From the IMG/VR virus record IMGVR_UViG_3300031788_000005, positions 1 through 64,000 of that record: 64,000 nt of DNA. The stretch is one strand, 5' to 3'. The notes below the pieces were generated by a model. It did not search any database and was not told the origin of the DNA. It saw only the letters and a program-made list of their open reading frames with translations. The DNA comes from a virus. The translations under genes were made by a program, and so were the position numbers. Of the stretch, positions 23,145 through 64,000 are shown in pieces (the first letter of the stretch is position 1; each line of letters begins with the position of its first letter).

Positions 23145-24155
23145 CTACTTTTTTGAATCGTAGTGTTTATTAATGACCTTAAAACTTCCACCGTTTTTAA
23201 GCTTAATGACAACTCCCTCAAACGGCTGGCCGTTAATTTCGGTTAATTCTTCGTCATACTTTTTAATTAATTCTGGAGTCAAAATAACACCCTTTTCCAA
23301 CATTGGAACAGTTTCAATATTAAGTATTTCAGCTACTTTTTCATAGTAGAATAAACCTTCTGTACCCTCATAATTTAATGTGTCTAAATTTAAAACACTA
23401 AATAAAGCAAAACCCAATGGCAACTTCGCATGAGGATTTACCGGACCTGCCTGAATTCCACCCCCGTAAATCTCGCCACGAAGAGCAAGATTAACTTTAA
23501 ATTTATTACAGAAATGAGTAAGTTTATTTAAAATGTCTATTTTTTTGGCAATTATAGTATAATTATTTACTGCGTCCAATTTCAAATCCATAGAACGAGT
23601 TGTAATACCAGTATCATAATGGTAATCCCAATCGGCGGTTTCTAATTCTAGCGTCTTCTCCTTACAATAGGCAGTCAAACTACTACCGTCAATTTTCAGA
23701 GTCACATCAACAATTTCACCATAAGGAATATTAAGAAGATTCTGGTATCTTTCCTCGTCAGACTTAAAAATTCCGTGGGGTAGATTACCTTTTGCATCAA
23801 GATTTTGAGGAAGAGGGGGTTCATAATGCGTTATCCCCAAAATTCCAGAGACTTCATATCCTTCTTCAGCCAAAAATGTGTTATATTGAATGATTGACGG
23901 GCTTTCGACAATACCCATCGAAAAAACACCCCTTAACTTTATGGCTCGAACCCGACTAGACTTTGCCTTGTAAAATTTAGCCCATTCTGCGTCAGGTAAG
24001 ACTGTATCTGGGGAAATAAACACAACCAAATCTTCAACCTTAAATTGGTTTCGCTTTACGATTACTTGGTAATTTAGCACCGTTACGATGGAAAGAAACT
24101 CACCGTTAGGATGGTCAATGATTGATTTAATTTTTTCAATACTTGCTAGTTTCAT
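23145..24155 (-). CDS. RNA ligase (DRB0094/Rnl5-like family)
   Basis: N-terminal OB-like KLASIEKI...HPN; motif I KIDGSS; GEIYG; EGVV; FKVIN. Confidence 0.9.
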   Translation of the reverse strand: MKLASIEKIKSIIDHPNGEFLSIVTVLNYQVIVKRNQFKVEDLVVFISPDTVLPDAEWAKFYKAKSSRVRAIKLRGVFSMGIVESPSIIQYNTFLAEEGYEVSGILGITHYEPPLPQNLDAKGNLPHGIFKSDEERYQNLLNIPYGEIVDVTLKIDGSSLTAYCKEKTLELETADWDYHYDTGITTRSMDLKLDAVNNYTIIAKKIDILNKLTHFCNKFKVNLALRGEIYGGGIQAGPVNPHAKLPLGFALFSVLNLDTLNYEGTEGLFYYEKVAEILNIETVPMLEKGVILTPELIKKYDEELTEINGQPFEGVVIKLKNGGSFKVINKHYDSKK

Positions 24156-35216: not shown

Positions 35217-35313
35217 ATTATCATATTGACACTTTCCTAAAGAATTGTCAAGAGATTTCCATGATTATTTATTCCCTGATGGATTATTCAGGTGTAATTC
35301 CCTATAATATGAT

Positions 35314-35451
35314 ATGGGAAGAAAAAAACTTAACCGAACCAGAGAAGAACTCCTTGAACAACACAGAGCCTGTCAAAGACGCTACTATTCAAAAAATAGG
35401 GAACAACTTAATGTCAAACGACTTAAACGCTACTTCGCCGAAAAAGATTAG
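35314..35451 (+). CDS. small basic protein, 45 aa (MGRKKLNRTREELLEQ...)
   Basis: Read manually; follows GTGTAAT; overlaps the GIY-YIG start in another frame. Confidence 0.5.
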   Translation: MGRKKLNRTREELLEQHRACQRRYYSKNREQLNVKRLKRYFAEKD

Positions 35452-36298
35452 CGGTATTTATAAAATAATAAATAAAGTTAATGGGAAATATTATGTGGGT
35501 AGTAGTATTAATATTTATAGAAGGTGGTCCATGCATAAATCATGGCTTAATCGAAACAAACATCATAATTATCACCTACAGTTATCTTGGAATAAATATG
35601 GCCAGCAAAACTTTGATTTTATTATCGAAAAAGAAGTACCTCCAGAAACCCTTTTAAAAGTAGAAGACGAGTATCTATTACTAGCCAAAAAAGAAGCGTC
35701 ATATAATCTAAATTTTAACGCCACGGGTTCTGATGTCAGTAATTCTACAAGAAGTATACTATCCCAAAAAGGAAAAGAAAGATGGTTAAACCAACAATAT
35801 AGAGAAACTCAAACTTTAAAAATTACTCAAGCCATGAATAAACCAGAAGTGAAATTAAGGGCTTCAAATTTGACTAAGGCTACTATGACACCAGCAAGGA
35901 AACTACAACTTTCATTTTTTGCAAACGTTCCCAGAAATTTAAATAAAATTAAATTATTTAATAAATTTACTCAAGAAATCTTTGAAGGAACACAATGGGA
36001 ATGCCGAAAAAAATATTCTCTTAACGCCTCCCATCTATCAGGATTAATACAAGGAAAAAGACTTTCTCATAAAGGGTGGATTTTATTCAAAAATCGTTTC
36101 AATAAATACGTCTTAGAAAATCAGTTAGGGATAAAGTCTCTAACCAAAATAAAACTAACCAACTCAATCAGCCAAGAGATGTTTGAAGGAACTAGAGATG
36201 AATTTAAAAAAAGATATAAAATAAGTAAAAGTAATGCTAATAATTTAATAAATAAAAAGATAAAATCGCACAAGGGATGGAGATTAGCCTCTATTTAA
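35411..36298 (+). CDS. free-standing GIY-YIG homing endonuclease with C-terminal repeats
   Basis: SGIYKIINKVNGKYYVGSS..IYRRW..H...HHN.HLQ.SWNKYG...YN; two FEGT...SHKGW repeats; start uncertain (track gives 35261). Confidence 0.9.
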   Translation: MSNDLNATSPKKISGIYKIINKVNGKYYVGSSINIYRRWSMHKSWLNRNKHHNYHLQLSWNKYGQQNFDFIIEKEVPPETLLKVEDEYLLLAKKEASYNLNFNATGSDVSNSTRSILSQKGKERWLNQQYRETQTLKITQAMNKPEVKLRASNLTKATMTPARKLQLSFFANVPRNLNKIKLFNKFTQEIFEGTQWECRKKYSLNASHLSGLIQGKRLSHKGWILFKNRFNKYVLENQLGIKSLTKIKLTNSISQEMFEGTRDEFKKRYKISKSNANNLINKKIKSHKGWRLASI

Positions 36299-42382: not shown

Positions 42383-42759
42383 AAAAGTATATTAATCTAT
42401 CTTTCCGTCTTTGTCAACAACAATCATCCTACGATAATCTGATAATTGCAATTAGGACAGGTTATATAAGTATAAGTATCGGTATCACCAGTGTAGTCCG
42501 TGTGTATTTTTGTGAAAGTATCCACGGGCATGTATTCAAGCAGTGCGCCACAATTACGACAAGTACACTGTTTGACTAATTTTTTGTCTGGTTCTTTGTT
42601 TATAATTTTAATAGGCATAAATTTATAATGAGTTACGGAAGGGCTTCCATCTTCAGGTAGTTATCGGCCATGTATGCATCCATGCGCTGTTATTGCTTTT
42701 ATTATTATAATCTTAAATCTAGATTACTGTGCAGTTGTGTTTCTGCCAATCGCTCGAAA

Positions 42760-42929
42760 TGGTGGAGCAGGAGAGTCAACACGCTTTTGGACTTACGCGC
42801 CTACATTTGGCGCAACCTTGGCTAAAAGTCGTTGCCTTTTGTGTCTGCTGTCGTCTTGCGGTGTCCCGCTATCGTAGTAACAGACTTCTCCGATTAACTT
42901 GCTTCTCCCCGCTTTAAACGGGATGCTCC
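42760..42929 (-). ncRNA. 170-nt CCA-ended structured RNA
   Basis: 5' GGAGCA pairs with 3' TGCTCC-A-CCA; several internal hairpins. Confidence 0.55.
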
Positions 42930-48753: not shown

Positions 48754-49524
48754 TCATAGGTCTGAGAATTTTTTAATTGTTAGTTTGTTATCTTTAATTA
48801 ATAAATATTGGTTAAGATGGCAGTCGATATCTATATTTTGCCAAATATTTTCATCAAACGAACCCTCGGTACTGTGGGGTAAAATATTAGTATGGGAACT
48901 ATGCCCAACTACCTGCGGAAGTCCTTCAATCGGTTCAAATTCCGTATCAAAATCCAACCAGTCCAATCCACCCACTGATTGACTACCTCCTCTACCATAT
49001 CCAGCGCGGTACATCCAATGTCTTCCATTAGCAGAAAGAGATATTTCGGCCTGTTCTACCTGTTCATCCAACCATTTAGAAAGACTTATTTTATCTAATT
49101 TTTGGTTTGGAGGAAGGAATGAGGGGTGAAGACCCGCGTGGGATAATAGCCGGTCGTCCAAAAACAAATACCACAAAAACTTTTCCCTGATTGCTGGCAT
49201 AAAAGACCCAAATTCTTTGGTAATTAACTTGTCCTTCCACCTATAATAACCACTACATTGAGTGTGCTGAGTATAACCCCACAAGTAACTTATATCGTGA
49301 TTGCCGATTGTGGTAAAGAAGTTTGGCTCAAACAAATACTTTTTGAGAAATTTACACGTTTTGATGGCGTCTTCTTCGCTATTATGACTAAAACTATCGA
49401 AAAAATCGCCGAGACAAACTACTTTATCGTAATTTTCACGCTTGAGAATTGTCTCTAGTTTATTAATCTCCTGATGCGGGTCGCTCAGGACAAGAATCGT
49501 CTGGTTTTTACTTGAAAGTTCCAT
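48754..49524 (-). CDS. calcineurin-like metallophosphoesterase
   Basis: DPH, GDFFD, GNHD, SHAG, QVVGHS. Confidence 0.9.
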   Translation of the reverse strand: MELSSKNQTILVLSDPHQEINKLETILKRENYDKVVCLGDFFDSFSHNSEEDAIKTCKFLKKYLFEPNFFTTIGNHDISYLWGYTQHTQCSGYYRWKDKLITKEFGSFMPAIREKFLWYLFLDDRLLSHAGLHPSFLPPNQKLDKISLSKWLDEQVEQAEISLSANGRHWMYRAGYGRGGSQSVGGLDWLDFDTEFEPIEGLPQVVGHSSHTNILPHSTEGSFDENIWQNIDIDCHLNQYLLIKDNKLTIKKFSDL

Positions 49525-50585: not shown

Positions 50586-51233
50586 TTAAGGTTCAAATTC
50601 TTTCTTTAAAATTTCATAGTCGCGCTTTCTTTCGGCTTTGGCATAATCATCTTTAGAAAGTCCCACTCCACCATCTTGAAGTCTTTCGCCATGATGGTCT
50701 ATAGGTTTCCAATTTTTCTTTTCCATTATCGCCGCGACTTGCTCAAAGCTAATAGGATAAAAGTTATGGCAGTCAACCCCCACATCAATCGCTCTAGCGT
50801 TGGGGTCGTCTGGCAAACTGCCGTGGCTATGAGCATAAAGATTATAGCTTCCATAATGACTGCGATTCCATACGCGAAAAGCGTAATGCGACAAAACGAT
50901 AAATTGACCGTTAATAGTAACTTCCGCGTAATCTCCTAAATAATTCACCTTATTAAGAACAACATGTTTGGCAAAATTTCTCAATGACTTGTCGTGATTA
51001 CCAAAAATAATATTAATGGTTCCATTAAGCCTAGATAAAAATCTAGCCACTTCTGATTCACCACCAAAGACAAAATCTCCTAAAAAAAATCCAACATCGT
51101 TAGGTGATACACGGCTATTCCAATTTGTGATAATAGTCTCATTCATTTCTTCGACATTCTTAAATGGACGCTTAGAATAGGTCAAAATATTAACATGGTT
51201 AAAATGAAAATCTGAACTAAAAAAATACTTCAT
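50586..51233 (-). CDS. calcineurin-like metallophosphoesterase
   Basis: SDFHFNH, LGDF, GNHD, LSHY, HSH, IDVGVD; start moved to MKYFF. Confidence 0.9.
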   Translation of the reverse strand: MKYFFSSDFHFNHVNILTYSKRPFKNVEEMNETIITNWNSRVSPNDVGFFLGDFVFGGESEVARFLSRLNGTINIIFGNHDKSLRNFAKHVVLNKVNYLGDYAEVTINGQFIVLSHYAFRVWNRSHYGSYNLYAHSHGSLPDDPNARAIDVGVDCHNFYPISFEQVAAIMEKKNWKPIDHHGERLQDGGVGLSKDDYAKAERKRDYEILKKEFEP

Positions 51234-51932
51234 ATTAAAATAATAATATACTTTTATTAACAAGTCAAGGATTTATTTTTACTTTATCTCCGTTTTTTAA
51301 TTCACTAATTTTGCAATAACGCTTATAAGGATTTACCCCGTGTTCCTCTTCACCCACGTCGGCGCGGTGCTCCCAATCATGCGGGCAATGGAATATAAAC
51401 TGCAACGTATTCCTGATATTAACAAAGAACGGGTTAGTTTCTTTGGCTGAATAAATCCATTTTATGAGTTTATTTTTCATGCTGAAGTCATTACTAAGCC
51501 CATATTTTTAGCACTAGAGATTTCTATTGGAGTAAAAAATGCTCTATCTCGGTCAAACAAAACTTCTCTTCCCCAATATACCTTATCAGCTAGATATGTT
51601 TTAGAATATCTCAATTTTTTCCTTCTTGGCATAGCTTCCATGTAGTTTTTACGCTTAACAAACTTAATTCTACAACCCATTAACGAAGGAGTAAAGTTAT
51701 TAGTATATCTAATATAAGCTTGAGGTATTTTATTAATATCATCTGAGAATTCGTGGCTCATAGAGACGGATTCAGGACTTTTCCCATTTTTATCGTAATA
51801 TTTGTTAATTGTCCAATTTAATCTTCGCAGTAAATCTGACATATAACCAATATTATCTCACATTTCAAAATTTGTCAACTATTTTCTTTTTTTCTTACAA
51901 TAATTCTATATAATAAATTGATTAAAAAATTT

Positions 51933-53103: not shown

Positions 53104-53367
53104 TTGAATATAGAGAATTTTTCGGGGTTTGTCAAGAATTATTTAAATTTTAAACAATGGGCCATTTCCCATGGATATAAAGAAGGTTTAAGTATAGAAA
53201 GAATCAACCCAGATGGAAATTATTGTCCAGAAAATTGCGAATGGATAACTAAATCTGAAAATTCAAGTAGAGTTACGTCAGGTAGAGACGCAAAAATCCA
53301 TTTTTTAACTGAAGAAAATATTCAATTAAAAAATAGGATAAAAGAATTAGAATTATTACTTAGGTAA
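53104..53367 (+). pseudogene. HNH endonuclease C-terminal fragment
   Basis: F..WA..HGY..GLSIERINPDGNYCPENC.W.T..EN; no credible start. Confidence 0.6.
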
Positions 53368-53991
53368 AAAATAAAACCAATCGACGTGAGCCGCGTTTTT
53401 TACCGCATATGAGGCGGGAATAGGTCTAGGCTCCTGATGAAAAAACAGGGGAACTAACCCCACGTCTTCTAATTTTTTATTTCCGCGCTTGCTATTGATA
53501 TCTTTATTCACGAGCATTAAATTTTCAAAATTACTTTTGCCTCCATGGGAGCGGGCAATTTTGTGTTCTATGTTAAGTTTGGAATACGGCAGACGAACCC
53601 CGCTATAACCACAGATTCCTTTTTGTTTTTCAAAAAGCACTGTTTTCGTAGGGCGAAATTTCCGAAGAGGCATTTTTGAATAGGACGTAACAATAATCGA
53701 GGGCGACCTTATTTGTATTTTCGCGCCGTGAATAACTTGGTCTATTCCGTTACGGATAGGTACTTCTAACCATTCTTCAAAAGAACAAGCTTTAAAACCA
53801 ATAACATTATCAAAATCCCAAGACCCATCTTCTTTTTTGCCATATTCAATATTAATGGCTTTGGCAGCAGGACGTTCTCCATCCGAAGAACTATTCATTG
53901 CAACCACGGCTTGGCGCGGACTAGTTTGGCCAATAATTTGATACAACGCGTTCAAGACCAGTGTGCTGGATTTATTTAAAAAATCACTCAT
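53356..53991 (-). CDS. HNH endonuclease (McrA-like)
   Basis: LVLNA.Y...ICGYSG...NIEH.I.RSHGG..NFENL...N.K.GNK. Confidence 0.85.
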   Translation of the reverse strand: MSDFLNKSSTLVLNALYQIIGQTSPRQAVVAMNSSSDGERPAAKAINIEYGKKEDGSWDFDNVIGFKACSFEEWLEVPIRNGIDQVIHGAKIQIRSPSIIVTSYSKMPLRKFRPTKTVLFEKQKGICGYSGVRLPYSKLNIEHKIARSHGGKSNFENLMLVNKDINSKRGNKKLEDVGLVPLFFHQEPRPIPASYAVKNAAHVDWFYFLPK

Positions 53992-54050: not shown

Positions 54051-54860
54051 ATGAATATTCACGCTCACCCAACGAAGAAAATTGGCGTTTTGCCTCGTCC
54101 AGCACACGTTAAAACCTGTAAATTAGCCAATTATTTAAATATTGGGATGATTCCAACTCCCCCCGCATCTTATGATTGGGGTACGACCGCTCCAAATTCT
54201 CTTCAAATGTTCATGAATGATTCCATAGGTGACTGCGCGGTAGCAGCTTATCTTCATCACAAAGAAACAGTTTTGCAAACTGCTGGTTTGGGAGTTTCAT
54301 TTCTTGACCCTGTTGCTTTGGAAGTTTATGAATGGGCAACAGCCGATGAAAATGGCGGACAAGGATATAATCCAAAAGCAGGTTCTGGCGATAATAATCC
54401 AACCGATACTGGTTTAGTACTAGTGAGTTTTTTGGAAGATTTAAGGACTCGTGGATTGATTTATGCTCATGCCGAAGTTAATTTAAATAATGCCAAAGAA
54501 GTTGCAGCCGCGCAATATTTATTTGGTGGACTTTATGTGGGAGTTGCACTTCCTGTTTTTGTTCAAAATCTTCAGAATCTTTGGTATATTCCAACCACCG
54601 CTCAAAACTTAGGAGACCCAACAAAAGGAAGTTGGGGCGGGCATTGCATTTATACTCGTGGAATTACGCCAACGACTGGAAATACTATTTTAACGAGTTG
54701 GGGAGAAACTATTCAAGCAACTCCACAATGGATGCAAACTTATCAGGATGAGGCTCATATTATTGTTCATAAGCATTCAGCCGCAGCTTTTGATAAATTA
54801 GCTAGTGCTAATTTTGGAATTAATGACCTTATTGCCGACCTAAATGAAATAAAAAAATAA
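54051..54860 (+). CDS. papain-like cysteine peptidase
   Basis: ND.IGDC..A...GSWGGHC...TSWG. Confidence 0.7.
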   Translation: MNIHAHPTKKIGVLPRPAHVKTCKLANYLNIGMIPTPPASYDWGTTAPNSLQMFMNDSIGDCAVAAYLHHKETVLQTAGLGVSFLDPVALEVYEWATADENGGQGYNPKAGSGDNNPTDTGLVLVSFLEDLRTRGLIYAHAEVNLNNAKEVAAAQYLFGGLYVGVALPVFVQNLQNLWYIPTTAQNLGDPTKGSWGGHCIYTRGITPTTGNTILTSWGETIQATPQWMQTYQDEAHIIVHKHSAAAFDKLASANFGINDLIADLNEIKK

Positions 54861-54874
54861 TTAGATATTTCTAC

Positions 54875-54922
54875 TTAAATTTTATTATTTATTAAATTGG
54901 TAATAGAGTATATTCCAGTCAT
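54875..54922 (-). pseudogene. GIY-YIG endonuclease N-terminal relic
   Basis: MTGIYSITNLINNKI*VEIS: stop where the Y of YIG is expected. Confidence 0.6.
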
Positions 54923-54940
54923 ATACTATATTACACTGTT

Positions 54941-55182
54941 TTACGTTTTTTAGCCGATATTTTGTGTTAATCTGACATTTTTCTCACTAACTGGATGTGG
55001 CGATGTGTTAATAATCGCTGCCCAAACCCGCTCTCAATGGAAAACATTATCCTCAAGCTGTTTTGGTTGCATCTACCTTTTGGTACAAACGAGTTTTTAA
55101 GACTCTCCCATGGCTGTTTTGATGTATCGAACTTCCTCTAATATAGGACTTTACCCATATCAGCGTCAGAATATTAACGTAA
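54941..55182 (-). ncRNA. rnpB: RNase P RNA, minimal form
   Basis: P1 TTACGTT/AACGTAA; P2 TCTGAC/GTCAGA; P3 ATATGGG/CCTATAT; CR-I GAGGAAGTTCGATA and CR-V ACAAAATATCGGCT forming P4 with bulged U; TGCAAC; AGAAAAATG before P2 3' strand. Confidence 0.8.
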
Positions 55183-55188
55183 TAATTC

Positions 55189-55217
55189 AATTTACACCAT
55201 CCATCAAAATTTGTCAA
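55189..55217 (-). promoter_or_regulatory. promoter of RNase P RNA
   Basis: TTGACA-N17-TAAATT; predicted +1 coincides with the P1 5' strand; overlaps a GTGTAAA motif. Confidence 0.65.
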
Positions 55218-55564
55218 TTATTATCTTCAATATTATCTCCCCACCAAAAAACATCCGATTTGCTACCAAAGAAATTAGCTCCACCAAGTTCTATACTTAA
55301 TTGCAAATTAGTATTATAGGTAAAATTAAAATAAGGAGGCATTTCATCTACTTGTAATGTTACAAAAATACACTTCTTGGGGAGTTTATATGATGCAGAA
55401 TTAATCGTTATTGGCGTTTGAATCATGCCGTGATTTAATGCTACGCGGCAGGTCTCGCGGAGACCATCCAAATATCCCTGCTCATAAGTATGTTTCGGGT
55501 CAACGGTTGTTTTGCTACATCCCGCAAATAGCAGGACGGCAATTAGTAGTATTATATTTTTCAT
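55214..55564 (-). CDS. putative lipoprotein
   Basis: MKNIILLIAVLLFAGC lipobox. Confidence 0.65.
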   Translation of the reverse strand: MKNIILLIAVLLFAGCSKTTVDPKHTYEQGYLDGLRETCRVALNHGMIQTPITINSASYKLPKKCIFVTLQVDEMPPYFNFTYNTNLQLSIELGGANFFGSKSDVFWWGDNIEDNN

Positions 55565-56205
55565 ATTTATTTTTTAATCATGAATTTTTTAATGCGTTTT
55601 AAAAAAGCATCCAGATTTTCATTTTCTTTTACAATGTGGTCGTGGTCGTAATATGCTCCGTCGCCCTTGGTATTAAAATCTAATTCTTGGACTTCACAAG
55701 GAATATTCGAAAATTTCAGGAATTCTTTTATACCTTCAAATTTGTAAGAGAGTTTAGTATGATAATCGTCTCCTTCATCAAACTTTTTTCCGTCAACAAA
55801 AATGATGTAATACGCATCATATGACACATCCAATGTTACTAATGTTAATTTCATAAAATTATTATTTTCAAGGAATTTTTAAATCGAATTTAGGTACTTT
55901 TACGTTTTTATCAGGCTTTAATTTTTGTTGGTGTATTTTGGATAATTTTTCTCTCAATTCATAAACCTCTAATGCCAAACCAATTACCAGATTATCTCCC
56001 ACTAAATCACGCCATTTTTCGCCATACCTTAAGGCTTCACCACCGCCATTTTTCCAATGTTGGACAGTATATTTTCCATCGCAGATAGTCACTTCCCAAT
56101 CAATTTCTTTTTCGGTAACGGGTTCCCATGGACTTGGACTGACTATACATCCACATTTAAAAGTCTCTGGATTAACAATTTGTTTACAACGTTTGCATTT
56201 CCATT

Positions 56206-56385
56206 TCATTTGTCAATTATCGTTTCACCATCTTGAGCATAGTTCCATCCTTTTGGGAGATTTTTGCCAGTTTCTTCCATAAAACGCTCGTTCATGGCAT
56301 CAATAATATCTGATTCGGCGGGGCCGAAGTCGGCATGATGACGAAACCATTCTAAGTATTCTAAATTAGTTGCTCTTTTTCTCAT
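56206..56385 (-). CDS. small protein, paralog of 61838-61987
   Basis: Read manually: ATNLEYLEWFRHHADFGPA...ETGKNLPKGW. Confidence 0.65.
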   Translation of the reverse strand: MRKRATNLEYLEWFRHHADFGPAESDIIDAMNERFMEETGKNLPKGWNYAQDGETIIDK

Positions 56386-57290
56386 AATTATTTATCAAAT
56401 CCCAATTCAAGACTATATTCTGCTTCTTCAAGGTAATTTTTCTCTTTTTCCAAAAAGTTTTCCGCTCGTATGACTTCTTCCTTTAATCGGGAATATTCTT
56501 TTTCTAAATTAGCCTTTTCTTGCTCAACTATGGCGTAGGATTTTTTATATCCTTCTTCAAGATTTGTTTTAGCTTCACGGAGTTTAGATTCGGCGTCTTT
56601 TACGTCGATTTTAGCTCGGACAACTCTGGCTTGTTTGTCGGTCATGATTTCCTCCAATTAGGATACTCTGGATACTCTGATTGACTTCCTAGAGTGCTAT
56701 TACCCATTAGTCGGGTAGGGCATAATCGGCGACTACAACATTGCCATTTTTGTTCCATAGTTTTCAAAATTAGCGTTGCATTGTGGGCAGCAGCCTTGTA
56801 TTGCAGGGCATCCATTTGGATGAATCGGACAATTTCCGTCACCATCGGTATCTAGTTCGCATCCTTTCATAATCATAAATAAGGGTTTTCCTCTTCGCAG
56901 ATTGGGCAGATTTTCCAATTATTTGCAGTTAAACCACAGGGGGCTTCGTCAGTTTTAAATGACCATCCTCCCGCTTCGGGAAATGATTCGCGACCGCAAA
57001 AAAAAACTTCCTCTCCAGCAGCACGACTCCAAAAATGGATATGTTTACACCATTTAGGCTTATTGCCGGATAAGTCTTGTTTAATTAATTGATTAATTGT
57101 CATTTATAACTTTCCCCCGCTTCTTGGGTTGGTTGACCGCATGTTGGACAGAGTAACGCGGAATTAACATCACGTTCCGATTCATAAGAATAATCGCATC
57201 TAAAACACTTCCAAATTATCCTATGTTCATGATTTCTTTCCCACTGGTATTGAAAATCATCATCCCTACCATAATCTTTATAATCGTAAC

Positions 57291-57725
57291 TCATATATTA
57301 AATTCCTCAATTTCCCCATCAGGAAATACAATCATACCTTTTTTCTTTACTTTTTTAGAAAATCGAACTGTACTCCACGTTCCAGACCTTAACTGTTCTT
57401 CTTTTTCTTTCGGGGCCGCAATTAAGAAATCACAATTATTAACAATATCATGATTTCTTTCAAGGTAGGGTTTCGGAATTAGTTGTATATCATACTTACA
57501 GAAGGCTCTATGAGCCTTAATATTGGGTACATGCCCAAATGTTTTGATTTTTTGAAAATTTTTATTTGCATTTGCTAAGGTAATTAGGTCGTAGAATTCG
57601 CGGTCGCTTCCAGAGCAATCACCGCTATGACTTTCTGTTATATAATGTTCGGCGATAAAAAGGGCAACTTTTAGTAATTGCATGGGTGTCATTCCATCGC
57701 GGGTTCCAGTAAATCCTAGTTTCAT
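57291..57725 (-). CDS. SLOG-superfamily (DprA/LOG-like) protein
   Basis: GFTGTR.GMT...GD..G.D...RNHDIV..CD.LIA.P...RSGTWSTVR. Confidence 0.75.
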   Translation of the reverse strand: MKLGFTGTRDGMTPMQLLKVALFIAEHYITESHSGDCSGSDREFYDLITLANANKNFQKIKTFGHVPNIKAHRAFCKYDIQLIPKPYLERNHDIVNNCDFLIAAPKEKEEQLRSGTWSTVRFSKKVKKKGMIVFPDGEIEEFNI

Positions 57726-58052
57726 AATTATTTTTTTAAAAAAGCAGAAATTGTTTGTTCCTGATTCTTATTTCTAAAAGAAATACTTGGTCGCCATGGC
57801 AAACAGCCCATCGTCCAAAGTGTCGGCAGATGCTCTTTTTTAGTTACCTCAGAAATGTTTGAAATACCTATCTGTTTTGATTCAAGGGCTTGTGAAACTA
57901 TTTCACCTTTATTTGCGCGAAAAGCAGACTCAACACATTTATATGGGTCTTCGTCATAAAGGTTTTCTACTACAATTTCGGTTTTAATGGTGATTTTCGC
58001 TCGAATCAGTTTGGACTTCATATCCTTATGATTACATATCCTTCAAAAAATG

Positions 58053-58352
58053 TCAAGCGCAAACATCAATTGAAGAGACCCATATGGTGTGCTGCAATAA
58101 ATATGTACATGAAATTTCCCATACCATAATATCCCCTTGGTAAAGTTCTTGGCCCTTGTCGTCGTATTCGCCAAAAAATTGTTGAACTACCGCTGGTACA
58201 AAATTAAAATCCCAAGGGGGAATCCAAATTTTATTATTGTCCCAGATAATCATATTGTTCACATGATGAACATAAAAATGCCCCGAAGAGTCGGGGTATC
58301 GGTAAGATTGGTCTTGTTCACTAAATAACCTTATTTTTTTGATATTTTTCAT
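58053..58352 (-). CDS. YopX-like protein, possibly degenerate
   Basis: QQFFGEYDDKGQELYQGDI. Confidence 0.45.
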   Translation of the reverse strand: MKNIKKIRLFSEQDQSYRYPDSSGHFYVHHVNNMIIWDNNKIWIPPWDFNFVPAVVQQFFGEYDDKGQELYQGDIMVWEISCTYLLQHTIWVSSIDVCA

Positions 58353-58427
58353 ATTATCAATAATAATACTATTTTCTTTTTAAGTCCATAAGGTGTTTCC
58401 CCCATATAAAAAAGTGTAATTTTTATT

Positions 58428-58685
58428 ATGAGCAAATCCATTGGTGATTTTTGGGAAAAACATAAGACCCTCGCACAGATTATTGCGATTCTAGGGGTCG
58501 TTGCTGGTATTTATGGCAACCATTACGAAACTTCTCAAAATTCAGATATTATTCAAGGCCAGAATAATTGGATGAAAGACGTTATTAAAGAACAAGCGCG
58601 GGAAATCCAATCATTAGAAATTTCCAACGCCGTTCAAGAACAGCAAATTTGTGATTTGAAGGAATTTTATTTAAATAAAAAATAA
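58428..58685 (+). CDS. membrane-anchored coiled-coil protein (possibly lysis-related)
   Basis: One TM segment plus heptads; GTGTAAT upstream. Confidence 0.5.
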   Translation: MSKSIGDFWEKHKTLAQIIAILGVVAGIYGNHYETSQNSDIIQGQNNWMKDVIKEQAREIQSLEISNAVQEQQICDLKEFYLNKK

Positions 58686-58688
58686 AAA

Positions 58689-59507
58689 TTAAACACCTTC
58701 AATTATCTGATTGACAGCCGCTACCACCTTTTTCTTATCTGTGCAATACAGTCCAGCCGACGAGAAAGACGTTAATTCTCCTAACCAAAAAGAATTATCT
58801 CCATCTTGAAAAATATCCACACAGAAAATGGGGTCAGGATAATATCCAACTTCCAGAATTTGTTTGCATTTTTCAGTAGCTCCCAAGGGGGCGCTTGGAA
58901 TTAATGTTTTCTTTCCTTGATATTGGTAAGTAGAACAGGAAATAATATCTTTTTTAGTACAAACAAAACGCCATTCACCCATAATTTTCTTGGGTGTCGA
59001 AACGATGACAATATCAGAACTGGAACAATTACCGCCGCCACTAGTAGCGTTATCCCAAAATCTATCAAAGTCTTGTAAATCAAGTAACTGGGCTTGAAAA
59101 GTCTTTTCGCCGCTATCAGGACGAATAAAGATTAAGGCTTCCCTACCGAACTTTTGATAATAATCAAATTTGAATTCTTTTAAATTACCAATGAATGTAA
59201 ATTCATTAAAATCATTAAATAGCAAGTCTTTAAAATAAGGATAATATGACGAGCAAAGATACTTCTCCCATGAAGAATATGCAACAGGATGACATCCTTT
59301 GGGAAGTCGGCTGGCAATATTTTTAGTCATTTGAATAGAACCCTGTACGATAACAAGGTCATTTTCCTCAAATCCTGATGGGTCGAAATCAAAGTGATTA
59401 TTCTTATCAATAACAAAACAATACCGCCCCGAATCGCGGACGGCTTGAATAAGGTCGCGGTAGTCTTCAGAATCAGTGAAATTTTCTATGATATATTTAA
59501 CTTTCAT
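58689..59507 (-). CDS. ATP-grasp protein (R2K/DUF4343-like)
   Basis: FIRPDSGEKTF...EWRF...S.Y...CVDI......GEL..FSSAGLY. Confidence 0.8.
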   Translation of the reverse strand: MKVKYIIENFTDSEDYRDLIQAVRDSGRYCFVIDKNNHFDFDPSGFEENDLVIVQGSIQMTKNIASRLPKGCHPVAYSSWEKYLCSSYYPYFKDLLFNDFNEFTFIGNLKEFKFDYYQKFGREALIFIRPDSGEKTFQAQLLDLQDFDRFWDNATSGGGNCSSSDIVIVSTPKKIMGEWRFVCTKKDIISCSTYQYQGKKTLIPSAPLGATEKCKQILEVGYYPDPIFCVDIFQDGDNSFWLGELTSFSSAGLYCTDKKKVVAAVNQIIEGV

Positions 59508-59549
59508 ACAAGAATGTTAACGTAATTATTAAATAATGTCAAGTATAAA

Positions 59550-59584
59550 CAAAGAAAGCCCCCAAGAATTAACTTGGGAGCTTT
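59550..59584 (-). terminator. intrinsic terminator
   Basis: AAAGCTCCCAAG-TTAATT-CTTGGGGGCTTT-CTTT. Confidence 0.7.
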
Positions 59585-59602
59585 GGGTATCGGTTTAAAT
59601 TA

Positions 59603-60040
59603 TTATTGAACGTTCCAGTGAACACCGTCTCCAAAAAAGAAACGGGTTGTTCCCGAAGGAATTGTGAATCCTGATGTAAGTGTTCCAGTGTTGAAGAAAA
59701 CAATACCAGTAGTAACACCGGATACCGCCAATCCACCACCTTTAGAAGTAATACTTAGTTCTTGTCCAATAACCACTTGTGGGAAAAGACCAGTTGATAC
59801 ACCAGCGCCACTTCCTACAACATAGGAATATCCTCCTACAATTCCACTCATTGAACCAGTCAAGATTAGTGGTGGATTAATATAACTGCCATAATTATTA
59901 ATACCGCCGCCAGTGTTGAGATTTAGTACGCCGGAAACGTCAAAGGCATATTGTGGGTTGGAATTATTAATACCAAATTGTCCTGCGTCGGTGACTGTTA
60001 GACCAGCACCTGATGTATATTGAATGGTTTCTTTTGACAT
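59603..60040 (-). CDS. Gly/Ser/Thr-rich putative virion (fibre-like) protein
   Basis: GQFGINNSNPQYAFDVSG motif; GDGVHW; GTGTAAT upstream and terminator downstream. Confidence 0.55.
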   Translation of the reverse strand: MSKETIQYTSGAGLTVTDAGQFGINNSNPQYAFDVSGVLNLNTGGGINNYGSYINPPLILTGSMSGIVGGYSYVVGSGAGVSTGLFPQVVIGQELSITSKGGGLAVSGVTTGIVFFNTGTLTSGFTIPSGTTRFFFGDGVHWNVQ

Positions 60041-60136
60041 ATATACTTTATATTACACAGAAAAAGAATAAAATTGAGAAAATTTTTGAAATAGTTATAA
60101 TAGACTAATTAATAATAACTAAGAAAGGTAAAAGTT

Positions 60137-60228
60137 TGGCGGTTCGCAGATATCACGCTTACCAGACGGGTTTTAACCGTCCCAATAGCTTTCCAAGCTA
60201 CGCTGGTGCCTCGACCAGTTTACGAACC
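60137..60228 (-). tRNA. tRNA-Ser(GGA)
   Basis: Cloverleaf, long variable arm, G73, CCA; T-loop AGCGTGA. Confidence 0.8.
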
Positions 60229-60232
60229 AAAA

Positions 60233-60326
60233 TGGCGGATAAGTAAAGTGCCGACCTCTATCCGTGGTATTAGCACGAATCACCTGCTTTCAAAGCAGAG
60301 GCCATCGCCGGATGGCTAACCTATCC
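60233..60326 (-). tRNA. tRNA-Ser(TGA)
   Basis: CTGC-TTTGAAA-GCAG, long variable arm, GCCA; T-loop GTCGGCA. Confidence 0.85.
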
Positions 60327-60858
60327 AAATTATAAAAAATTTATTTTATCTAAATTTATTTTTGGATTAATAATAGTTTCCCCAATTTCCGTAGTCGCTA
60401 GAAATTTCCTAACTTCTTGGATTTTACTTTTATTACCCTCCCCATATTCAATCAACGCCTGCATGGTTTGATGTTCACAAATAAATTTTACATCGGAGGG
60501 AATATATTTTTCCCATAGTTTTTTAAATTGTTTATATTTCATAATATTCTAATTCAGCTATTCTTCTGGCCGCTTTTTTATCTACTCGCAAACAACGCCT
60601 TCTATGGGTTGTGTCTTTAGATTTTCGCCTTCCAGATATGCCTTTTAAAAAAGATTTACTGCTATACGGTTTCATAATATTATTGGGTAAATTTTAGATT
60701 TGTCTTTCTGCAACTCCTTCCACATCAAAACCTGCTGACAAGCATGAATTCCATCGCGGAAATAACGTTGGTGGTCGGGATGGGTTTGTGGCAAAAGGAT
60801 AAATTTATCCCACGCTTCGACAAGACATTGCATTATTTCTTTTTCCTCATTCATAAAT

Positions 60859-60931
60859 TGGTGAATCCTTGATGGCTCACACACCACAAGCGGTTTGCCG
60901 CAGTCGTCTTTCTCATTGCAGACGAGGACTC
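60859..60931 (-). ncRNA. tRNA-like RNA without a recognisable anticodon loop
   Basis: GAGTCCT/AGGATTC-ACCA acceptor; CGTCT/AGACG, GCGG-CAAA-CCGC and TGG/CCA hairpins. Confidence 0.5.
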
Positions 60932-60937
60932 GTAAAT

Positions 60938-61024
60938 TGGCGGATAATTACCCTCCTGCCGAGTAAACCTTTCGGTTCGCACCGTTTTCGAAACGGGCCT
61001 AGAAACTTTTCTAGTTAATTATCC
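60938..61024 (-). tRNA. tRNA-Ser(CGA)
   Basis: CCGT-TTCGAAA-ACGG; variable arm ACC-GAAA-GGT; GCCA; T-loop GGCAGGA. Confidence 0.8.
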
Positions 61025-61470
61025 AAATCATTGGTCTCCATCCATTAAAGTTTGTAACGTCAAAGCTGCTAGATTTGCTTTGGTAGGCCGTTCAATACCG
61101 CAGATGGGACACATTTTCCAAGATTTTGGAATATCCCTGTGTAATGAGTCCATCCACCAAGAATAGCGCCTATTTCCATCAATATATTCATGGAGATATT
61201 TAATATGGTCACACCAAGTTTTCATAAAGCCGCTTGCCAGAATGTATCGACTGCCCCAATCATAGTCCCTGATAAAACCCAAAAATCACCTTCTGCTCGT
61301 GGATATGGATTAGGGATAATCTCTACTTCATGTTCTCCCGCTGACAATGGCACTATGATATCTCGCGGTAGACGCATTTTAGATGCATCAATTAAATTTA
61401 ATATTCTAGTCGTAATTACTTTCATTAATTTAAGCTTAACAAATTTTTCATTCAAAGTCAAGAAAAAAAA

Positions 61471-61545
61471 TGGAGGCTAATCAGGGATTTGTTTCGCCCT
61501 GTCTTGTAATTTACGAAATTACTGTGCATACAACACCTAAAAGCC
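61471..61545 (-). tRNA. tRNA-Thr(CGT), atypical
   Basis: GTAAT-TTCGTAA-ATTAC; enlarged T-loop; U.U mismatches in acceptor; TCCA. Confidence 0.6.
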
Positions 61546-61550
61546 GAAAG

Positions 61551-61625
61551 TGGAGGACAAGCCGGAATTTACATCCGATTCCCAATTTTACCAAAATTGA
61601 ATTTTATTACATAAACTACAAGTCC
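61551..61625 (-). tRNA. tRNA-Thr(GGT), atypical
   Basis: CAATT-TTGGTAA-AATTG; U.U mismatches in acceptor; TCCA. Confidence 0.7.
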
Positions 61626-61639
61626 AAAAAATCATAAAT

Positions 61640-61718
61640 TGGTGCTGCGGACAGGAGTTGAACCTGCATTATTCCAATTATGCGCTTCCTCTTTAGGAAA
61701 GAGTGCCATTACCGCAGC
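61640..61718 (-). tRNA. D-arm-less tRNA-Arg(CCT)-like
   Basis: GCTGCGG/CCGCAGC-ACCA; canonical GGTTCAACTCC T-arm; CTCT-TTCCTAA-AGAG. Confidence 0.6.
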
Positions 61719-61726
61719 GTAAAATC

Positions 61727-61834
61727 GTGCTGACTGTCTGTTGAGTTGGCAATCCCAATTAACGACCCGACAGCTAGGTGGCTCACTAAACGTGGTGTTC
61801 GGTAGCGAATCGAACGCGCCTTTGATATCAGCAC
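61727..61834 (-). ncRNA. permuted tRNA-like (Y RNA/YrlA-like) RNA
   Basis: Ends pair (GTGCTGA/TCAGCAC); GCG-TTCGATT-CGC T-arm precedes a loop-closed acceptor-like stem ACCGAAC-ACCAC-GTTTAGT. Confidence 0.45.
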
Positions 61835-61837
61835 AAA

Positions 61838-61987
61838 TTATTCGTCGTCCCAACCTTGAGGGACTTTCTTGCCCGTTTCCTTTTCAAACTGGCGGTGCAT
61901 TTCGTAACGCACATCACCATCGGCAGGGCCAAAATCAGCGTTGATACGAAACCATTTAAGGTATTCAAGTTCTGTTGCTTCTTCCAT
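61838..61987 (-). CDS. small protein, paralog of 56206-56385
   Basis: Read manually: ATELEYLKWFRINADFGPA...ETGKKVPQGW; own promoter. Confidence 0.65.
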   Translation of the reverse strand: MEEATELEYLKWFRINADFGPADGDVRYEMHRQFEKETGKKVPQGWDDE

Positions 61988-62028
61988 ACTCAAACATTAT
62001 CATCAATGTCGGATTATGTCAAGCGAAA

Positions 62029-62119
62029 TGGAGGAAGGAGCAAATCCCGCCTTTGACACCCCTTTCAGGGTGCGATGTGTTTAGCAAACACTCCTAGAAC
62101 CTCGTCTAGTTCACCTTCC
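62029..62119 (-). tRNA. tRNA-Ser(GCT)
   Basis: GTGT-TTGCTAA-ACAC; long variable arm CACCC/GGGTG; CCA; T-loop GGCGGGA. Confidence 0.75.
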
Positions 62120-62513
62120 ATTGTTCAAAGTTTTCTGCTAATTTTACATCTGGATGTCTTTTTGAAGCAGAAAAACTAAGATAAATTTTACTTTTACCGC
62201 GAGCCAAATGCAACGGAACAAAATAGACCTTATCATTTGCTGGATAATAAATGGCAAAATAATCTATTTTGCCTTCGTAATCTTTGCTTACTTGCTGTCC
62301 CTTAATTTTGTAAGTAGATTTTCCATCAAATTCGATGCTGTTATTTACTTTTCGTCCTGTTTTTGTTTGGATGCGAATTAAATTATTATCGTCTTGAACG
62401 ATTAAATCTACACCCGTATTTTCTCCAAATGGGAGAAATGCCGTTTTCCCTAATTCCAAAACTTTAGCTAAAACTTTGGCTTCAGAAATACTTCCTTTGC
62501 TTTTTGTGTTCAT
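62106..62513 (-). CDS. PD-(D/E)XK endonuclease, group I intron-associated/homing type
   Basis: KG.ISEAKV...PFGEN...DLIV......RIQTKT...Y...IDYFAIY.P....YFVP. Confidence 0.85.
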   Translation of the reverse strand: MNTKSKGSISEAKVLAKVLELGKTAFLPFGENTGVDLIVQDDNNLIRIQTKTGRKVNNSIEFDGKSTYKIKGQQVSKDYEGKIDYFAIYYPANDKVYFVPLHLARGKSKIYLSFSASKRHPDVKLAENFEQWKVN

Positions 62514-62553
62514 GTCTATCTAGTAATACACTAGACACGTTTCATTGGGAAAT

Positions 62554-62638
62554 TGGTCGCAATGGTGGGACTTCCACCCACAAAGGTCGGAGATTTTAAG
62601 TTTCCATGCTCTTGTATTCGCTGTCAACCCACATTGCG
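62554..62638 (-). tRNA. tRNA-Leu(TAA)-like, atypical
   Basis: CGCAATG/CATTGCG-ACCA; GGAAA-CTTAAAA-TCTCC; T-arm GTGGG-TGGAAGT-CCCAC. Confidence 0.6.
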
Positions 62639-62645
62639 TTGAAAT

Positions 62646-62721
62646 TGGTGTGTTCTTTCCCACCGTCAGCAGCCAAGGGAGCGGCTTTACCAGCCATCCT
62701 CGGTATCGTTTTGTGCGAACG
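62646..62721 (-). ncRNA. degenerate tRNA-sized CCA-ended element
   Basis: Ends in ACCA; GTTC/GAAC; GGCT/AGCC and CCC/GGG hairpins; sits between tRNAs. Confidence 0.3.
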
Positions 62722-62726
62722 TATAT

Positions 62727-62803
62727 TGGTGCGCCCCCTCGGTAATGCTCCGAGTCCTATCGGGTAAGAGCCGATTGCTTGCCACTATTAGAGCTTGGAA
62801 CGC
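62727..62803 (-). tRNA. tRNA-Lys(CTT)
   Basis: ATCGG-CTCTTAC-CCGAT; T-loop AGCATTA; ACCA. Confidence 0.85.
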
Positions 62804-62809
62804 AGTAAA

Positions 62810-62885
62810 TGGTTGTCGTGACAGGTGCCGACCCTGCTAAATTCTCCATGTAAAGGAGATAATCATGCCGATGATACTCACGACA
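62810..62885 (-). tRNA. tRNA-Val(TAC)
   Basis: TCTCC-TTTACAT-GGAGA; T-loop GTCGGCA; ACCA. Confidence 0.8.
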
Positions 62886-62891
62886 GTAAAA

Positions 62892-62966
62892 TGGATGCCT
62901 GTGATGGTGCTGCCCCATCGCCTCGACTTTCAGAGAGTCGCGAACTACTGTTATTCAGAACAGGCA
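62892..62966 (-). tRNA. tRNA-Gln(CTG)
   Basis: CGACT-CTCTGAA-AGTCG; U1-A72; T-loop GGCAGCA. Confidence 0.85.
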
Positions 62967-63433
62967 ATAAAATTACTTTTCTTGTAATGATTCAGAATGA
63001 CCGCATTGTGGACATTTCCAACATCTAACAAGTTTTCCTTCTGAATAATGAGTGTATTCTGTTTTAATATTTTCATCAACAAAATCAACAGACTCACCCA
63101 ATTTTAAATTAATTTTGCAGTATTTACATTTTTTATTTTTCATAAATTTAAAATCTCAACAAAAAGGTTAATTCTTCGCTGAGAATCCAAGGTATATTAC
63201 TACCCTTGAAAACCCCTATGGTGCACTTTAACCATTCCCCTTGCAAAAAGAACAAGCGTTAAGGGTACTAAATCTCTCTAATCCACTCCGTAACTGGAAT
63301 AAATTTTTCACATTTACAATTAGGACATTTTTTAAAAACCTCGTCTAAATTAAAAATCTCAGAACATCCTATGCATTTTTTGAAATTTTGCAATCTTGGT
63401 TTAATTTTGTAATAATCTTTGATTTTCATAAAA

Positions 63434-63508
63434 TGGAGCCAAGCCTCGGTAATGCTCCGAGTTCTCTCGATTACAAGTCGAGTGCATCACTTTGTATGCT
63501 TGCAAGGC
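63434..63508 (-). tRNA. tRNA-Thr(TGT)
   Basis: CTCGA-CTTGTAA-TCGAG; T-loop AGCATTA; TCCA. Confidence 0.85.
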
Positions 63509-63513
63509 GAAAT

Positions 63514-63589
63514 TGGTGCATCCTGTCGGAACTGCCCCGACATCCCATTCCTTAAGAGGGAAGGCTCTATCTCGCTGAGTTAAGGATGC
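63514..63589 (-). tRNA. tRNA-Lys(CTT), second copy
   Basis: TTCC-CTCTTAA-GGAA; T-loop GGCAGTT; ACCA. Confidence 0.85.
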
Positions 63590-63858
63590 AAAATTATTAA
63601 TATATTATTTAATTTCTAAATTATCTAGAACTTCTATTAGTTTAACATCCAAAATTTGGGCATCATCTTCTGTTAGAGAGCGGTCATAAATCAAACCTTT
63701 CGTAGGAGAACCGTATCTCCAATCTTTCCAGTATTTTTTACCATCTCTATCTTGCCAAATTGTTGTTCCACCGTCACGAATTGTATTAATTTTCTTAACC
63801 AAAATTTCTTGCATATTTTTATTATGAATGAAGTTTAGATTTTTGTCAAGGAGAAAAA

Positions 63859-63933
63859 TGGTCCCAGTAGAAGAAATTGCATCTTTAACTCCGAATGACT
63901 TATGAAATCACCGTTCCACTCTGGATTACTGGG
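63859..63933 (-). tRNA. tRNA-Met or Ile2(CAT)
   Basis: TGAT-TTCATAA-GTCA; CCCAGTA/TACTGGG-ACCA. Confidence 0.7.
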
Positions 63934-63938
63934 AAAAA

Positions 63939-64000
63939 TGGTGGACATTTCGTGTTACGCTCACGACTTTCAACTTTTTCAGAGTTGCACTTTCACTAGA
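63939..64000 (-). tRNA. tRNA-Phe(GAA), 5' end beyond window
   Basis: CAACT-CTGAAAA-AGTTG; T-loop AGCGTAA; ACCA. Confidence 0.8.

Follow-up and report, generated by a model that had tools for sequence, protein, structure and literature searches.

The closest described relatives of the element reported here are the bacterial type A RNase P RNAs (RF00010; E. coli M1 RNA), in which helices P1, P2, P3, P4 (a pseudoknot with a bulged U), P5, P15 and P16 follow one another in order and a joiner carries the sequence GGU, which pairs with the 3'-CCA of transfer RNA (tRNA) (PMC13254310). The archaeal type T RNA of the Thermoproteaceae (Pyrobaculum) has lost most of its specificity domain and was reported to be still active (Lai et al. 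2010, as relayed in PMC7191817). RNase P separates polycistronic tRNA precursors in E. coli (PMC7049720), and phages with clustered, same-strand tRNA genes and short spacers (T4, T5 and the huge phages) use the host RNase P. No description of a phage-encoded RNase P RNA was found in the searchable literature, where most subscription journals are absent, and the only viral candidate found was an inactive RNase P-like RNA of poxviruses (PMC3001073). Here we analyze a 64,000-nucleotide (nt) stretch of phage DNA, referred to as the window, that comprises positions 1-64000 of the 83,067-base-pair (bp) IMG/VR virus record IMGVR_UViG_3300031788_000005 (CheckV completeness 75%); the phage is contained in many peat metagenomes. 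Its tRNA genes are clustered on one strand with short spacers like those of the phages above, but unlike them this phage itself supplies a putatively catalytic RNA, a 242-nt RNase P RNA. The original prediction proposed that this RNA and the tRNAs near it, most of which have a non-standard elbow between D-loop and T-loop, form a self-contained and partly orthogonal tRNA maturation system. Our results uphold the RNA and the unusual elbows and argue against their being coupled.

Both features came to light by reading of the sequence letters. The parts of the RNase P RNA, its promoter and the hairpin that follows it are:

54941..55182, minus strand: phage RNase P RNA, 242 nt, with a type-A-like bacterial catalytic domain and a reduced specificity domain (profile and covariation)
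55189..55217, minus strand: sigma-70-like promoter TTGACA-N17-TAAATT, 10/12 matches, with the end of the -10 box 7 nt ahead of the first base of P1
55176..55182, minus strand: P1 5' strand TTACGTT, with its partner AACGTAA at 54941-54947
55165..55169, minus strand: P2 5' strand CTGAC, with its partner GTCAG at 54972-54976 (compensatory changes in 5/5 pairs)
55138..55163, minus strand: P3 hairpin (second covariation helix of the alignment)
55125..55138, minus strand: CR-I, GAGGAAGTTCGATA, including the P4 5' strand with its bulged U (P4 is 100% paired and its three outer pairs covary)
55121-55124 and 55070-55073, minus strand: the two strands of P5, flanking the specificity domain
55074..55120, minus strand: reduced specificity domain, 47 nt, consisting of a short helix, GAG, a P12-like hairpin and then CGTTTGTA
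55019..55066, minus strand: P15 (CCA/TGG), P16 (GCTT/GAGC) and the joiner CGGGTTTGGGCA with the conserved GGU (fifth and sixth covariation helices)
54951..54985, minus strand: CR-IV-like GAGAAAAATG, the P2 3' strand and CR-V, ACACAAAATATCGGCTA, which is the P4 3' strand (alignment and profile)
54895..54935, minus strand: hairpin 3' of the RNA, with a 13-bp stem and a 7-nt loop (fold, -10.5 kcal/mol), followed by CCAATTT

In the window RNA, P4 is formed by AGTTCGATA paired with TATCGGCT, and the position of the promoter suits a transcription start at P1. A leave-one-out profile of 29 relatives, from which the window was excluded, was searched against the 83-kilobase (kb) genome and gave a single match, at 55169-54951 (E 1.6e-30, 100.5 bits), which together with the covarying helices establishes the predicted RNA as real. 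A 218-nt contig from a peat metatranscriptome spans 54953-55169 with zero mismatches at a depth of 12.1, the greatest among the contigs listed; we take this as a weak hint of expression. The downstream hairpin is similar to a tRNA minihelix. It may serve in 3' processing or in termination, and RNase P could trim its own transcript there. The CCAATTT that follows this hairpin recurs after many of the tRNAs.

Relatives of the RNA were retrieved from IMG/VR with a degenerate pattern that combined the CR-I and CR-V blocks of the window, set 140-170 nt apart. The scan returned 83 loci, in nearly all of which the base triplet following CR-I pairs with the one preceding CGGCT, and nhmmer profiles, used throughout to decide family membership, confirmed 65/83 as one family with 57 distinct sequences. 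Only one of the 120 pattern matches listed from GTDB (one genome per species) belongs to the family, and it lies on a 3-kb contig of a metagenome-assembled genome from the candidate phyla radiation. Because 65/83 loci were confirmed in IMG/VR as against 1/120 among the GTDB matches listed, the family is essentially viral. Two members, L532:3502-3748 (minus strand) and L571:1296-1533 (plus strand), have the CR-I variants GAGGTCAAGTTCG and GAGGACAAGTTCG, and since such variant members exist the family extends beyond what the search pattern captures. For three further matches to a relaxed 3' motif (L568, L570 and L572) the profile gave no confirmation. Among GenBank phages, blastn detected members only in uncultured huge phages, namely LR756501 and LR756503 (735 kb; 76.7% identity, 89% of the query covered) and LR745206. 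In these 735-kb and 635-kb genomes the stretch that holds the member (LR756501.1:181316-181535, minus strand; LR756503.1; LR745206.1) is unannotated, and the paper that deposited LR756501 does not mention RNase P. Searching with two window proteins found no relatives, and when the window was compared with GenBank phages by megablast and blastn nothing meaningful emerged.

The secondary structure of the family was examined in a MAFFT alignment of 30 members that was made without fitting to any structure. It backs six helices, P2, P3, P4, P5, P15 and P16, in which 96.5% of cells are paired; sliding the 3' partners by 1-3 columns lowers this to 28-44%, and none of 500 shuffles attains the observed pairing values. 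Compensatory changes occur in 23/30 pairs overall, including all pairs of P2 (5/5), P5 (4/4) and P15 (3/3). The eight pairs of P4 are 100% paired and its three variable pairs covary (CG/GC/AU, GC/UA/CG and AU/GC/UA/CG). At the place expected for P1, a script found a helix of 7-19 bp in most members, with sequences that are unrelated between members. Invariant stretches are GAGGAAGTTCG, AG..A.T(G) and ACA.AA...CGGCTA, and the conserved single-stranded blocks are GAGGAAGUUCG (CR-I), AGAUAAAUG ahead of the P2 3' strand (CR-IV) and ACAGAA-NN-CGGCUA (CR-V). These blocks match the bacterial type A consensus, namely GAGGAAAGUCC for CR-I, AGAUGAAUG for CR-IV and ACAGAAnCCGGCUUA for CR-V, a comparison that also draws on the match of one member to the Rfam model RNaseP_arch. 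The joiner between P16 and P15, CGGGUU (CGGGTT in DNA), contains GGU; its column G155 is invariant, and 90% or more of the sequences agree at the neighboring C153, G156, T157 and T158. The family thus has a P4 built from CR-I and CR-V with a bulged U, the blocks CR-I, CR-IV and CR-V in that order, and P1, P2, P3, P5 and P15/P16 with GGU, which is the order of helices in type A.

The departures from type A are in size and in the specificity domain. Whole phage RNAs measure 206-262 nt, as against 367 positions in the Rfam model of the bacterial type A RNA, and the specificity domain that the P5 strands enclose has a length of 40-85 nt in 30/30 aligned members (median 50; window 47). It runs from a short helix through GAG and a hairpin that frequently ends in a GNRA loop to the conserved joiner CGUUUGNA, and its 4-bp helix covaries at one pair (G:C versus A:U). 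P8, P9, P13 and P14 are not recognizable, and the specificity domain of type A (P7-P14, CR-II/CR-III and the double T-loop module) is not there in full, though the remnant might still form a T-loop module that docks the elbow. The claim that this domain is reduced therefore holds for the window and for the family as a whole. All phage RNAs fall below the Rfam gathering score, and Rfam 15 has no family that captures them; the best relative on RNaseP_arch, L057:405-633, matches that model independently over its full length (E 3.5e-7), with 35.4 bits against a gathering score of 84. The phage RNAs further differ from type A in being phage-encoded within tRNA arrays without an rnpA gene. The type T RNA is likewise a natural RNase P RNA with most of the specificity domain lost, a likeness that is functional only. 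It is archaeal, chromosomal and served by archaeal proteins, whereas the phage family is viral, shows conserved blocks of the bacterial type and keeps a small remnant made up of a helix and a hairpin, with joiners that are conserved.

The genomic setting of the family points to tRNA processing. All 643 tRNAs that ARAGORN called in the 57 distinct loci (643/643) share the strand of the RNA, 43/57 loci hold at least three tRNAs, and in 27/57 a tRNA is no more than 60 nt away from the RNA; in relatives a tRNA is often found 7-20 nt after the RNase P RNA. A phage contribution to the 5' processing of its own tRNAs would be the natural reading of this same-strand placement in arrays. No gene for the protein subunit RnpA (PF00825) was found in the window's record or in 50 other RNA-bearing phage records, 7 of them at least 90% complete, and a gene for a CCA-adding enzyme was likewise absent from the window's record. 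The system is thus not self-contained as had been supposed, and the RNA must act with a host protein, with some other partner or alone. Because these records lack an RnpA gene, the RnpA of the host is the probable partner.

The putative substrates of the window RNA are plentiful. A relaxed cloverleaf scan anchored on NCCA, combined with ARAGORN at lowered thresholds, yielded some 40 minus-strand tRNA genes, located from 60137 to 75460 of the record, with anticodons that cover all 20 amino acids. Thirty-four genes were parsed. They conform to the cloverleaf, in which acceptor and T stems measure 7 and 5 bp and both the T-loop and the anticodon loop, the latter with U33, measure 7 nt. All 34 as well as an unparsed tRNA-Trp encode the NCCA end, so that CCA is encoded by nearly all of the roughly 40 genes, much as had been predicted. 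The very short spacers that had also been noted (4-9 nt) are confined to clusters of 2-4 tRNAs, the clusters themselves being separated by small open reading frames (ORFs). The genes of the array that lie at least partly in the window include:

60137-60228, minus strand: Ser-GGA
60233-60326, minus strand: Ser-TGA
60938-61024, minus strand: Ser-CGA
61640-61718, minus strand: Arg-CCT, D-armless
62554-62638, minus strand: Leu-TAA
62727-62803, minus strand: Lys-CTT
62810-62885, minus strand: Val-TAC
62892-62966, minus strand: Gln-CTG
63434-63504, minus strand: Thr-TGT
63514-63589, minus strand: Lys-CTT
63859-63933, minus strand: tRNA with anticodon CAT
63939-64014, minus strand: Phe-GAA, which runs past the window end

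Standard tools overlook nearly all of these genes. ARAGORN called no tRNA in the window at default settings, Rfam at its gathering score reported one weak tRNA there (61643-61718), and in the whole record just 12 genes attain the Rfam tRNA threshold. These misses, like those of the RNase P RNA, are a property of the models used and not an absence of the features.

The elbow of the tRNAs is indeed remodelled in most cases. TTC at positions 54-56 is present in only 1-2 of the 34 parsed tRNAs, and the others have TGCRA, AGCGTTA, GGCAG, GTCGGCA or TGGRA. The T-loop classes and the D-loop bases found with them are:

T-loop TGCRAnn: 8 genes, plus 1 with CGCAAAA; D-loop 18-19 is AG in 7/8 and in the CGC gene
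T-loop AGCGTTA-like: 7 genes; D-loop 18-19 is AG in 6/7
T-loop GGCAGnn: 5 genes; D-loop 18-19 is AG
T-loop TGGRAnn: 4 genes; D-loop 18-19 is AC by reading of the strings (scored as 'other' by the script)
T-loop GTCGGCA: 3 genes; D-loop 18-19 is GG

The two loops follow a simple rule: A18 accompanies G55, C19 accompanies G56, G18 is retained where position 55 is T, and 54:58 is T:A, A:T or G:G. Compared with the canonical elbow (G18:Psi55, G19:C56 and T54:A58), the phage tRNAs retain the cloverleaf and a T-loop of 7 nt, and covariation shows that the tertiary pairs form at unchanged positions, while the pairs themselves become A18:G55, C19:G56, A54:T58 and G54:G58; U54, U55 and G18, which are common targets of T-loop and D-loop modification, are absent from these changed pairs. 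RNase P stacks on the outermost pair of the elbow, 19:56 (PMC13254310), and this pair remains Watson-Crick in the remodelled tRNAs. In the four tRNAs with G56, a TGGRAnn T-loop and an AC D-loop (64398-64473, 62554-62638, 72212-72302 and 73411-73488 of the record, all on the minus strand), the canonical G19:C56 pair looks like it has been swapped to C19:G56. Other phages follow this rule too: G55 was never seen with a GG D-loop (0/490) among the 637 tRNAs of the family loci (Fisher p 1e-33), and the 1171 tRNAs of G55-type arrays include 438 that combine AG with G55 and a single one that combines GG with G55. Because the changes in the tertiary pairs compensate one another, these tRNAs are under selection to fold. 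Escape from host T-loop and D-loop enzymes or from tRNA-directed nucleases is a plausible, if so far speculative, purpose of the remodelling.

Tandem G55 T-arms, searched for with a pattern that is independent of RNase P, occur in at least 119 IMG/VR loci (L448-L566, for example L509, L480, L471, L541, L497 and L505). Since about three matches would be expected by chance, on a rough estimate, G55 arrays are common, and tRNAs with an A18:G55 elbow (TGCRAnn T-loop and AG D-loop) are widespread in phage tRNA arrays. In these loci 502/1171 tRNAs have G55, and tRNA-Ser is nearly always without it (2 versus 69). Single-tRNA pattern scans (GGGTGCGAGTCCC...CCA and GGAGCGTTACC...CCA) gave chance matches only; L316, from the second of these, has no ARAGORN tRNA. 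No description of A18:G55 tRNAs was found in the literature searched as above.

The availability of both sets of loci allowed us to compare the distributions of the two traits, which the original prediction expected to co-occur in relatives. This is largely not the case. Mostly ordinary tRNAs accompany the RNA in 54/57 distinct loci, and TTC is present in 542/637 (85%) of the tRNAs at family loci. Besides the window, only L046 (16/27) and L064 (12/28) are G55-rich; without these two, the G55 share is 1.4% of family-locus tRNAs, compared with 1.3% in 118 control arrays, which were found by a canonical tandem T-arm pattern and are biased against G55-rich arrays. In the opposite direction, 2/29 G55-rich loci (L509 and L532) carry the RNase P RNA. 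When whole records were searched with two motifs and profile confirmation, the RNA was present in 2/25 G55-rich records and 1/50 canonical controls, a difference that is not significant; of the five G55-rich records with a completeness of 90% or more, three are among the 23/25 without it. To a first approximation the mini RNA and the remodelled elbow are independent, and neither requires the other. Reduction of the specificity domain, to 40-85 nt in each of the 30 aligned members, characterizes the family as a whole, and most members occur alongside canonical tRNAs. The specificity domain of the window, moreover, agrees with the family consensus and has no special change.

Taken together, these results favor the reading that the phage RNase P RNA cuts phage tRNA precursors and that remodelling of the elbow is a separate, independent trait, to which we assign a probability of roughly 0.72. 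Homology, structure, genomic association and independence are its observed components; catalysis, the use of host RnpA and a benefit of the elbow are inferred. The RNA, which keeps P1-P5, the P4 pseudoknot, CR-I, CR-IV, CR-V, P15/P16 and GGU, would be transcribed from its own sigma-70-type promoter; its GGU would pair with the encoded CCA ends of the phage tRNAs; and it would, probably together with host RnpA, cut the 5' leaders and short spacers of polycistronic phage tRNA transcripts. The result would be added or sustained RNase P capacity during infection. The remodelled elbow (A18:G55, C19:G56, A54:T58 and G54:G58) would independently keep the L-shape of the tRNAs while altering the bases read by host T-loop and D-loop enzymes or nucleases.

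Several points weigh against this reading or limit the numbers behind it. Catalysis by the RNA and a protein partner, if it has one, are deduced from sequence. The hint of expression stems from contigs of RNA libraries, which can include DNA, and such contigs cover only a minority of 54500-64000. Rfam gave no RNase P family match at E<=10, either across 40000-64000 or in the 411 nt around the candidate, and an RF00010 search of the whole record returned nothing. The retrieval pattern was derived from the window, so that the prevalence figures are lower bounds, and variants with GAGGTCAAG, GAGGACAAG or GAGGUCAAG in CR-I exist. The tests of co-occurrence drew on fragments and incomplete records with motifs that miss variants, and are compatible with a weak enrichment; five arrays (the window, L046, L064, L509 and L532) do combine many G55 tRNAs with the RNA.

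A rival reading is that of a coupled system, according to which the reduced domain is adapted to, or tolerant of, remodelled elbows on which host RNase P performs poorly, so that the phage would run a partly orthogonal circuit resistant to host defenses or to shutdown of host processing. Both traits are extreme in the window genome, L046 and L064 are G55-rich while none of the 118 controls (biased as they are against G55) is, the RNA is carried by 2/25 G55-rich records and 1/50 controls, and RNase P is known to depend critically on its elbow-docking module to bind substrates (PMC13254310). We nevertheless consider such a system unlikely: the same reduction is found in all family members, most of which sit among canonical tRNAs, the window domain shows nothing peculiar to it, 23/25 G55-rich records (3/5 of the nearly complete ones) do without the RNA, the 19:56 pair that RNase P contacts stays Watson-Crick, and neither the window record nor the 50 others encode an RnpA. 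The mechanism it would entail is of similarly low likelihood, namely that the 47-nt domain reads the elbow loosely or differently and so frees the elbow bases from host enzymes or defenses, with the same orthogonal channel operating in L046, L064, L509 and L532.

That the RNA might instead be a non-catalytic mimic, a decoy or regulator that soaks up host RnpA or tRNA precursors and thereby shuts down or retunes host tRNA processing, is brought to mind by its drastically reduced specificity domain, by the lack of a phage RnpA gene (which implies competition for the host protein if one is used) and by the inactive poxvirus RNA, for which a decoy role has been considered (PMC3001073). A decoy would need less than what is preserved, however, since the whole catalytic core (the bulged U of P4, CR-I, CR-IV, CR-V and GGU) is conserved across a divergent family, and the location of the RNA on the strand of the tRNAs, often a few nt away from one, suits an enzyme made along with its substrates; we judge the mimic to be distinctly improbable. 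The failure of standard tools to see either feature could finally be taken to mean that the motifs and the odd tRNAs are non-functional, owing to chance resemblance or decay. With a profile E-value of 1.6e-30, compensatory changes in six helices, a near-complete anticodon set and tertiary pairs that covary under selection for folding, this explanation is close to negligible. A phage RNase P RNA that probably acts on the precursors of the phage's own tRNAs, with the elbow as an unconnected trait, accounts best for the evidence.

Other genes and RNAs of the window include the RNA ligase and phosphoesterases noted in the original prediction, all three of which were confirmed:

23145..24155, minus strand: RNA ligase gene (PF09414, PF21189; phrog_968, E 1.9e-40)
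50586..51263, minus strand: phosphoesterase gene (phrog_547, E 2.5e-55)
48754-49524: calcineurin-like phosphoesterase gene (PF00149)
53356-53991, minus strand: HNH endonuclease
35261-36298, plus strand: GIY-YIG protein
62106-62513, minus strand: 135-amino-acid ORF between tRNAs, of the function-unknown family phrog_5018
60859..60931, minus strand: CCA-ending RNA with a 7-bp acceptor-like stem, without cloverleaf, ending in ACCA

Nothing connects the ligase and the phosphoesterases to the RNase P RNA. Genes of the endonuclease type lie within and around the RNA region, among them the HNH endonuclease and the GIY-YIG protein; the ORF at 62106-62513 resembles, by eye, a PD-(D/E)XK nuclease. Of the additional RNAs with an acceptor stem and an RCCA end that had been proposed as further substrates, those at 60859-60931 and near 42760 (acceptor-like stem and ACCA) were borne out, while no convincing acceptor stem was found at 62646. 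The second of these, an RNA of about 170 nt at about 42630-42800 (minus strand) and far from the tRNA array, starts with GGAGCA and ends with TGCTCCACCA; its ends look tmRNA-like, and ARAGORN made no call. Two tRNA-Arg-like genes, at 61640-61718 (CCT) and at 73881-73958 of the record (GCG), both on the minus strand, share an odd layout in which TAATGGC replaces the D arm and GCATAATTGGA(A/T)TA precedes a canonical TTC T arm. Small genes fill the region, and the whole 64 kb holds 14 ORFs of at least 220 amino acids. This paucity of long ORFs, together with a candidate with a CTA anticodon that ARAGORN reported at its loosest threshold, prompted a test for stop-codon recoding; ORF lengths were not longer under any reassignment, and the candidate did not parse as a tRNA.

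What is new here is the RNA family, its distribution and the test of its independence from the elbow. The distribution gives no support to one matched system of mini RNA and elbow. A18:G55 and related elbows are in their own right natural experiments in tRNA tertiary structure, and the fact that standard finders under-call remodelled tRNAs matters for phage annotation and for the study of tRNA-targeting defenses. Viral RNase P RNAs that have kept their catalytic core, of which Rfam 15 and the searchable literature yielded no description, form a family that extends across many phage lineages, in genomes of up to 735 kb. Its dozens of natural bacterial-type RNAs of about 210-260 nt bear on how much of the specificity domain is needed and on the origin of the type T reduction. 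If the RNA acts as proposed, phages would be taking over a step in the biogenesis of the translation machinery that had been assumed to rest with the host.

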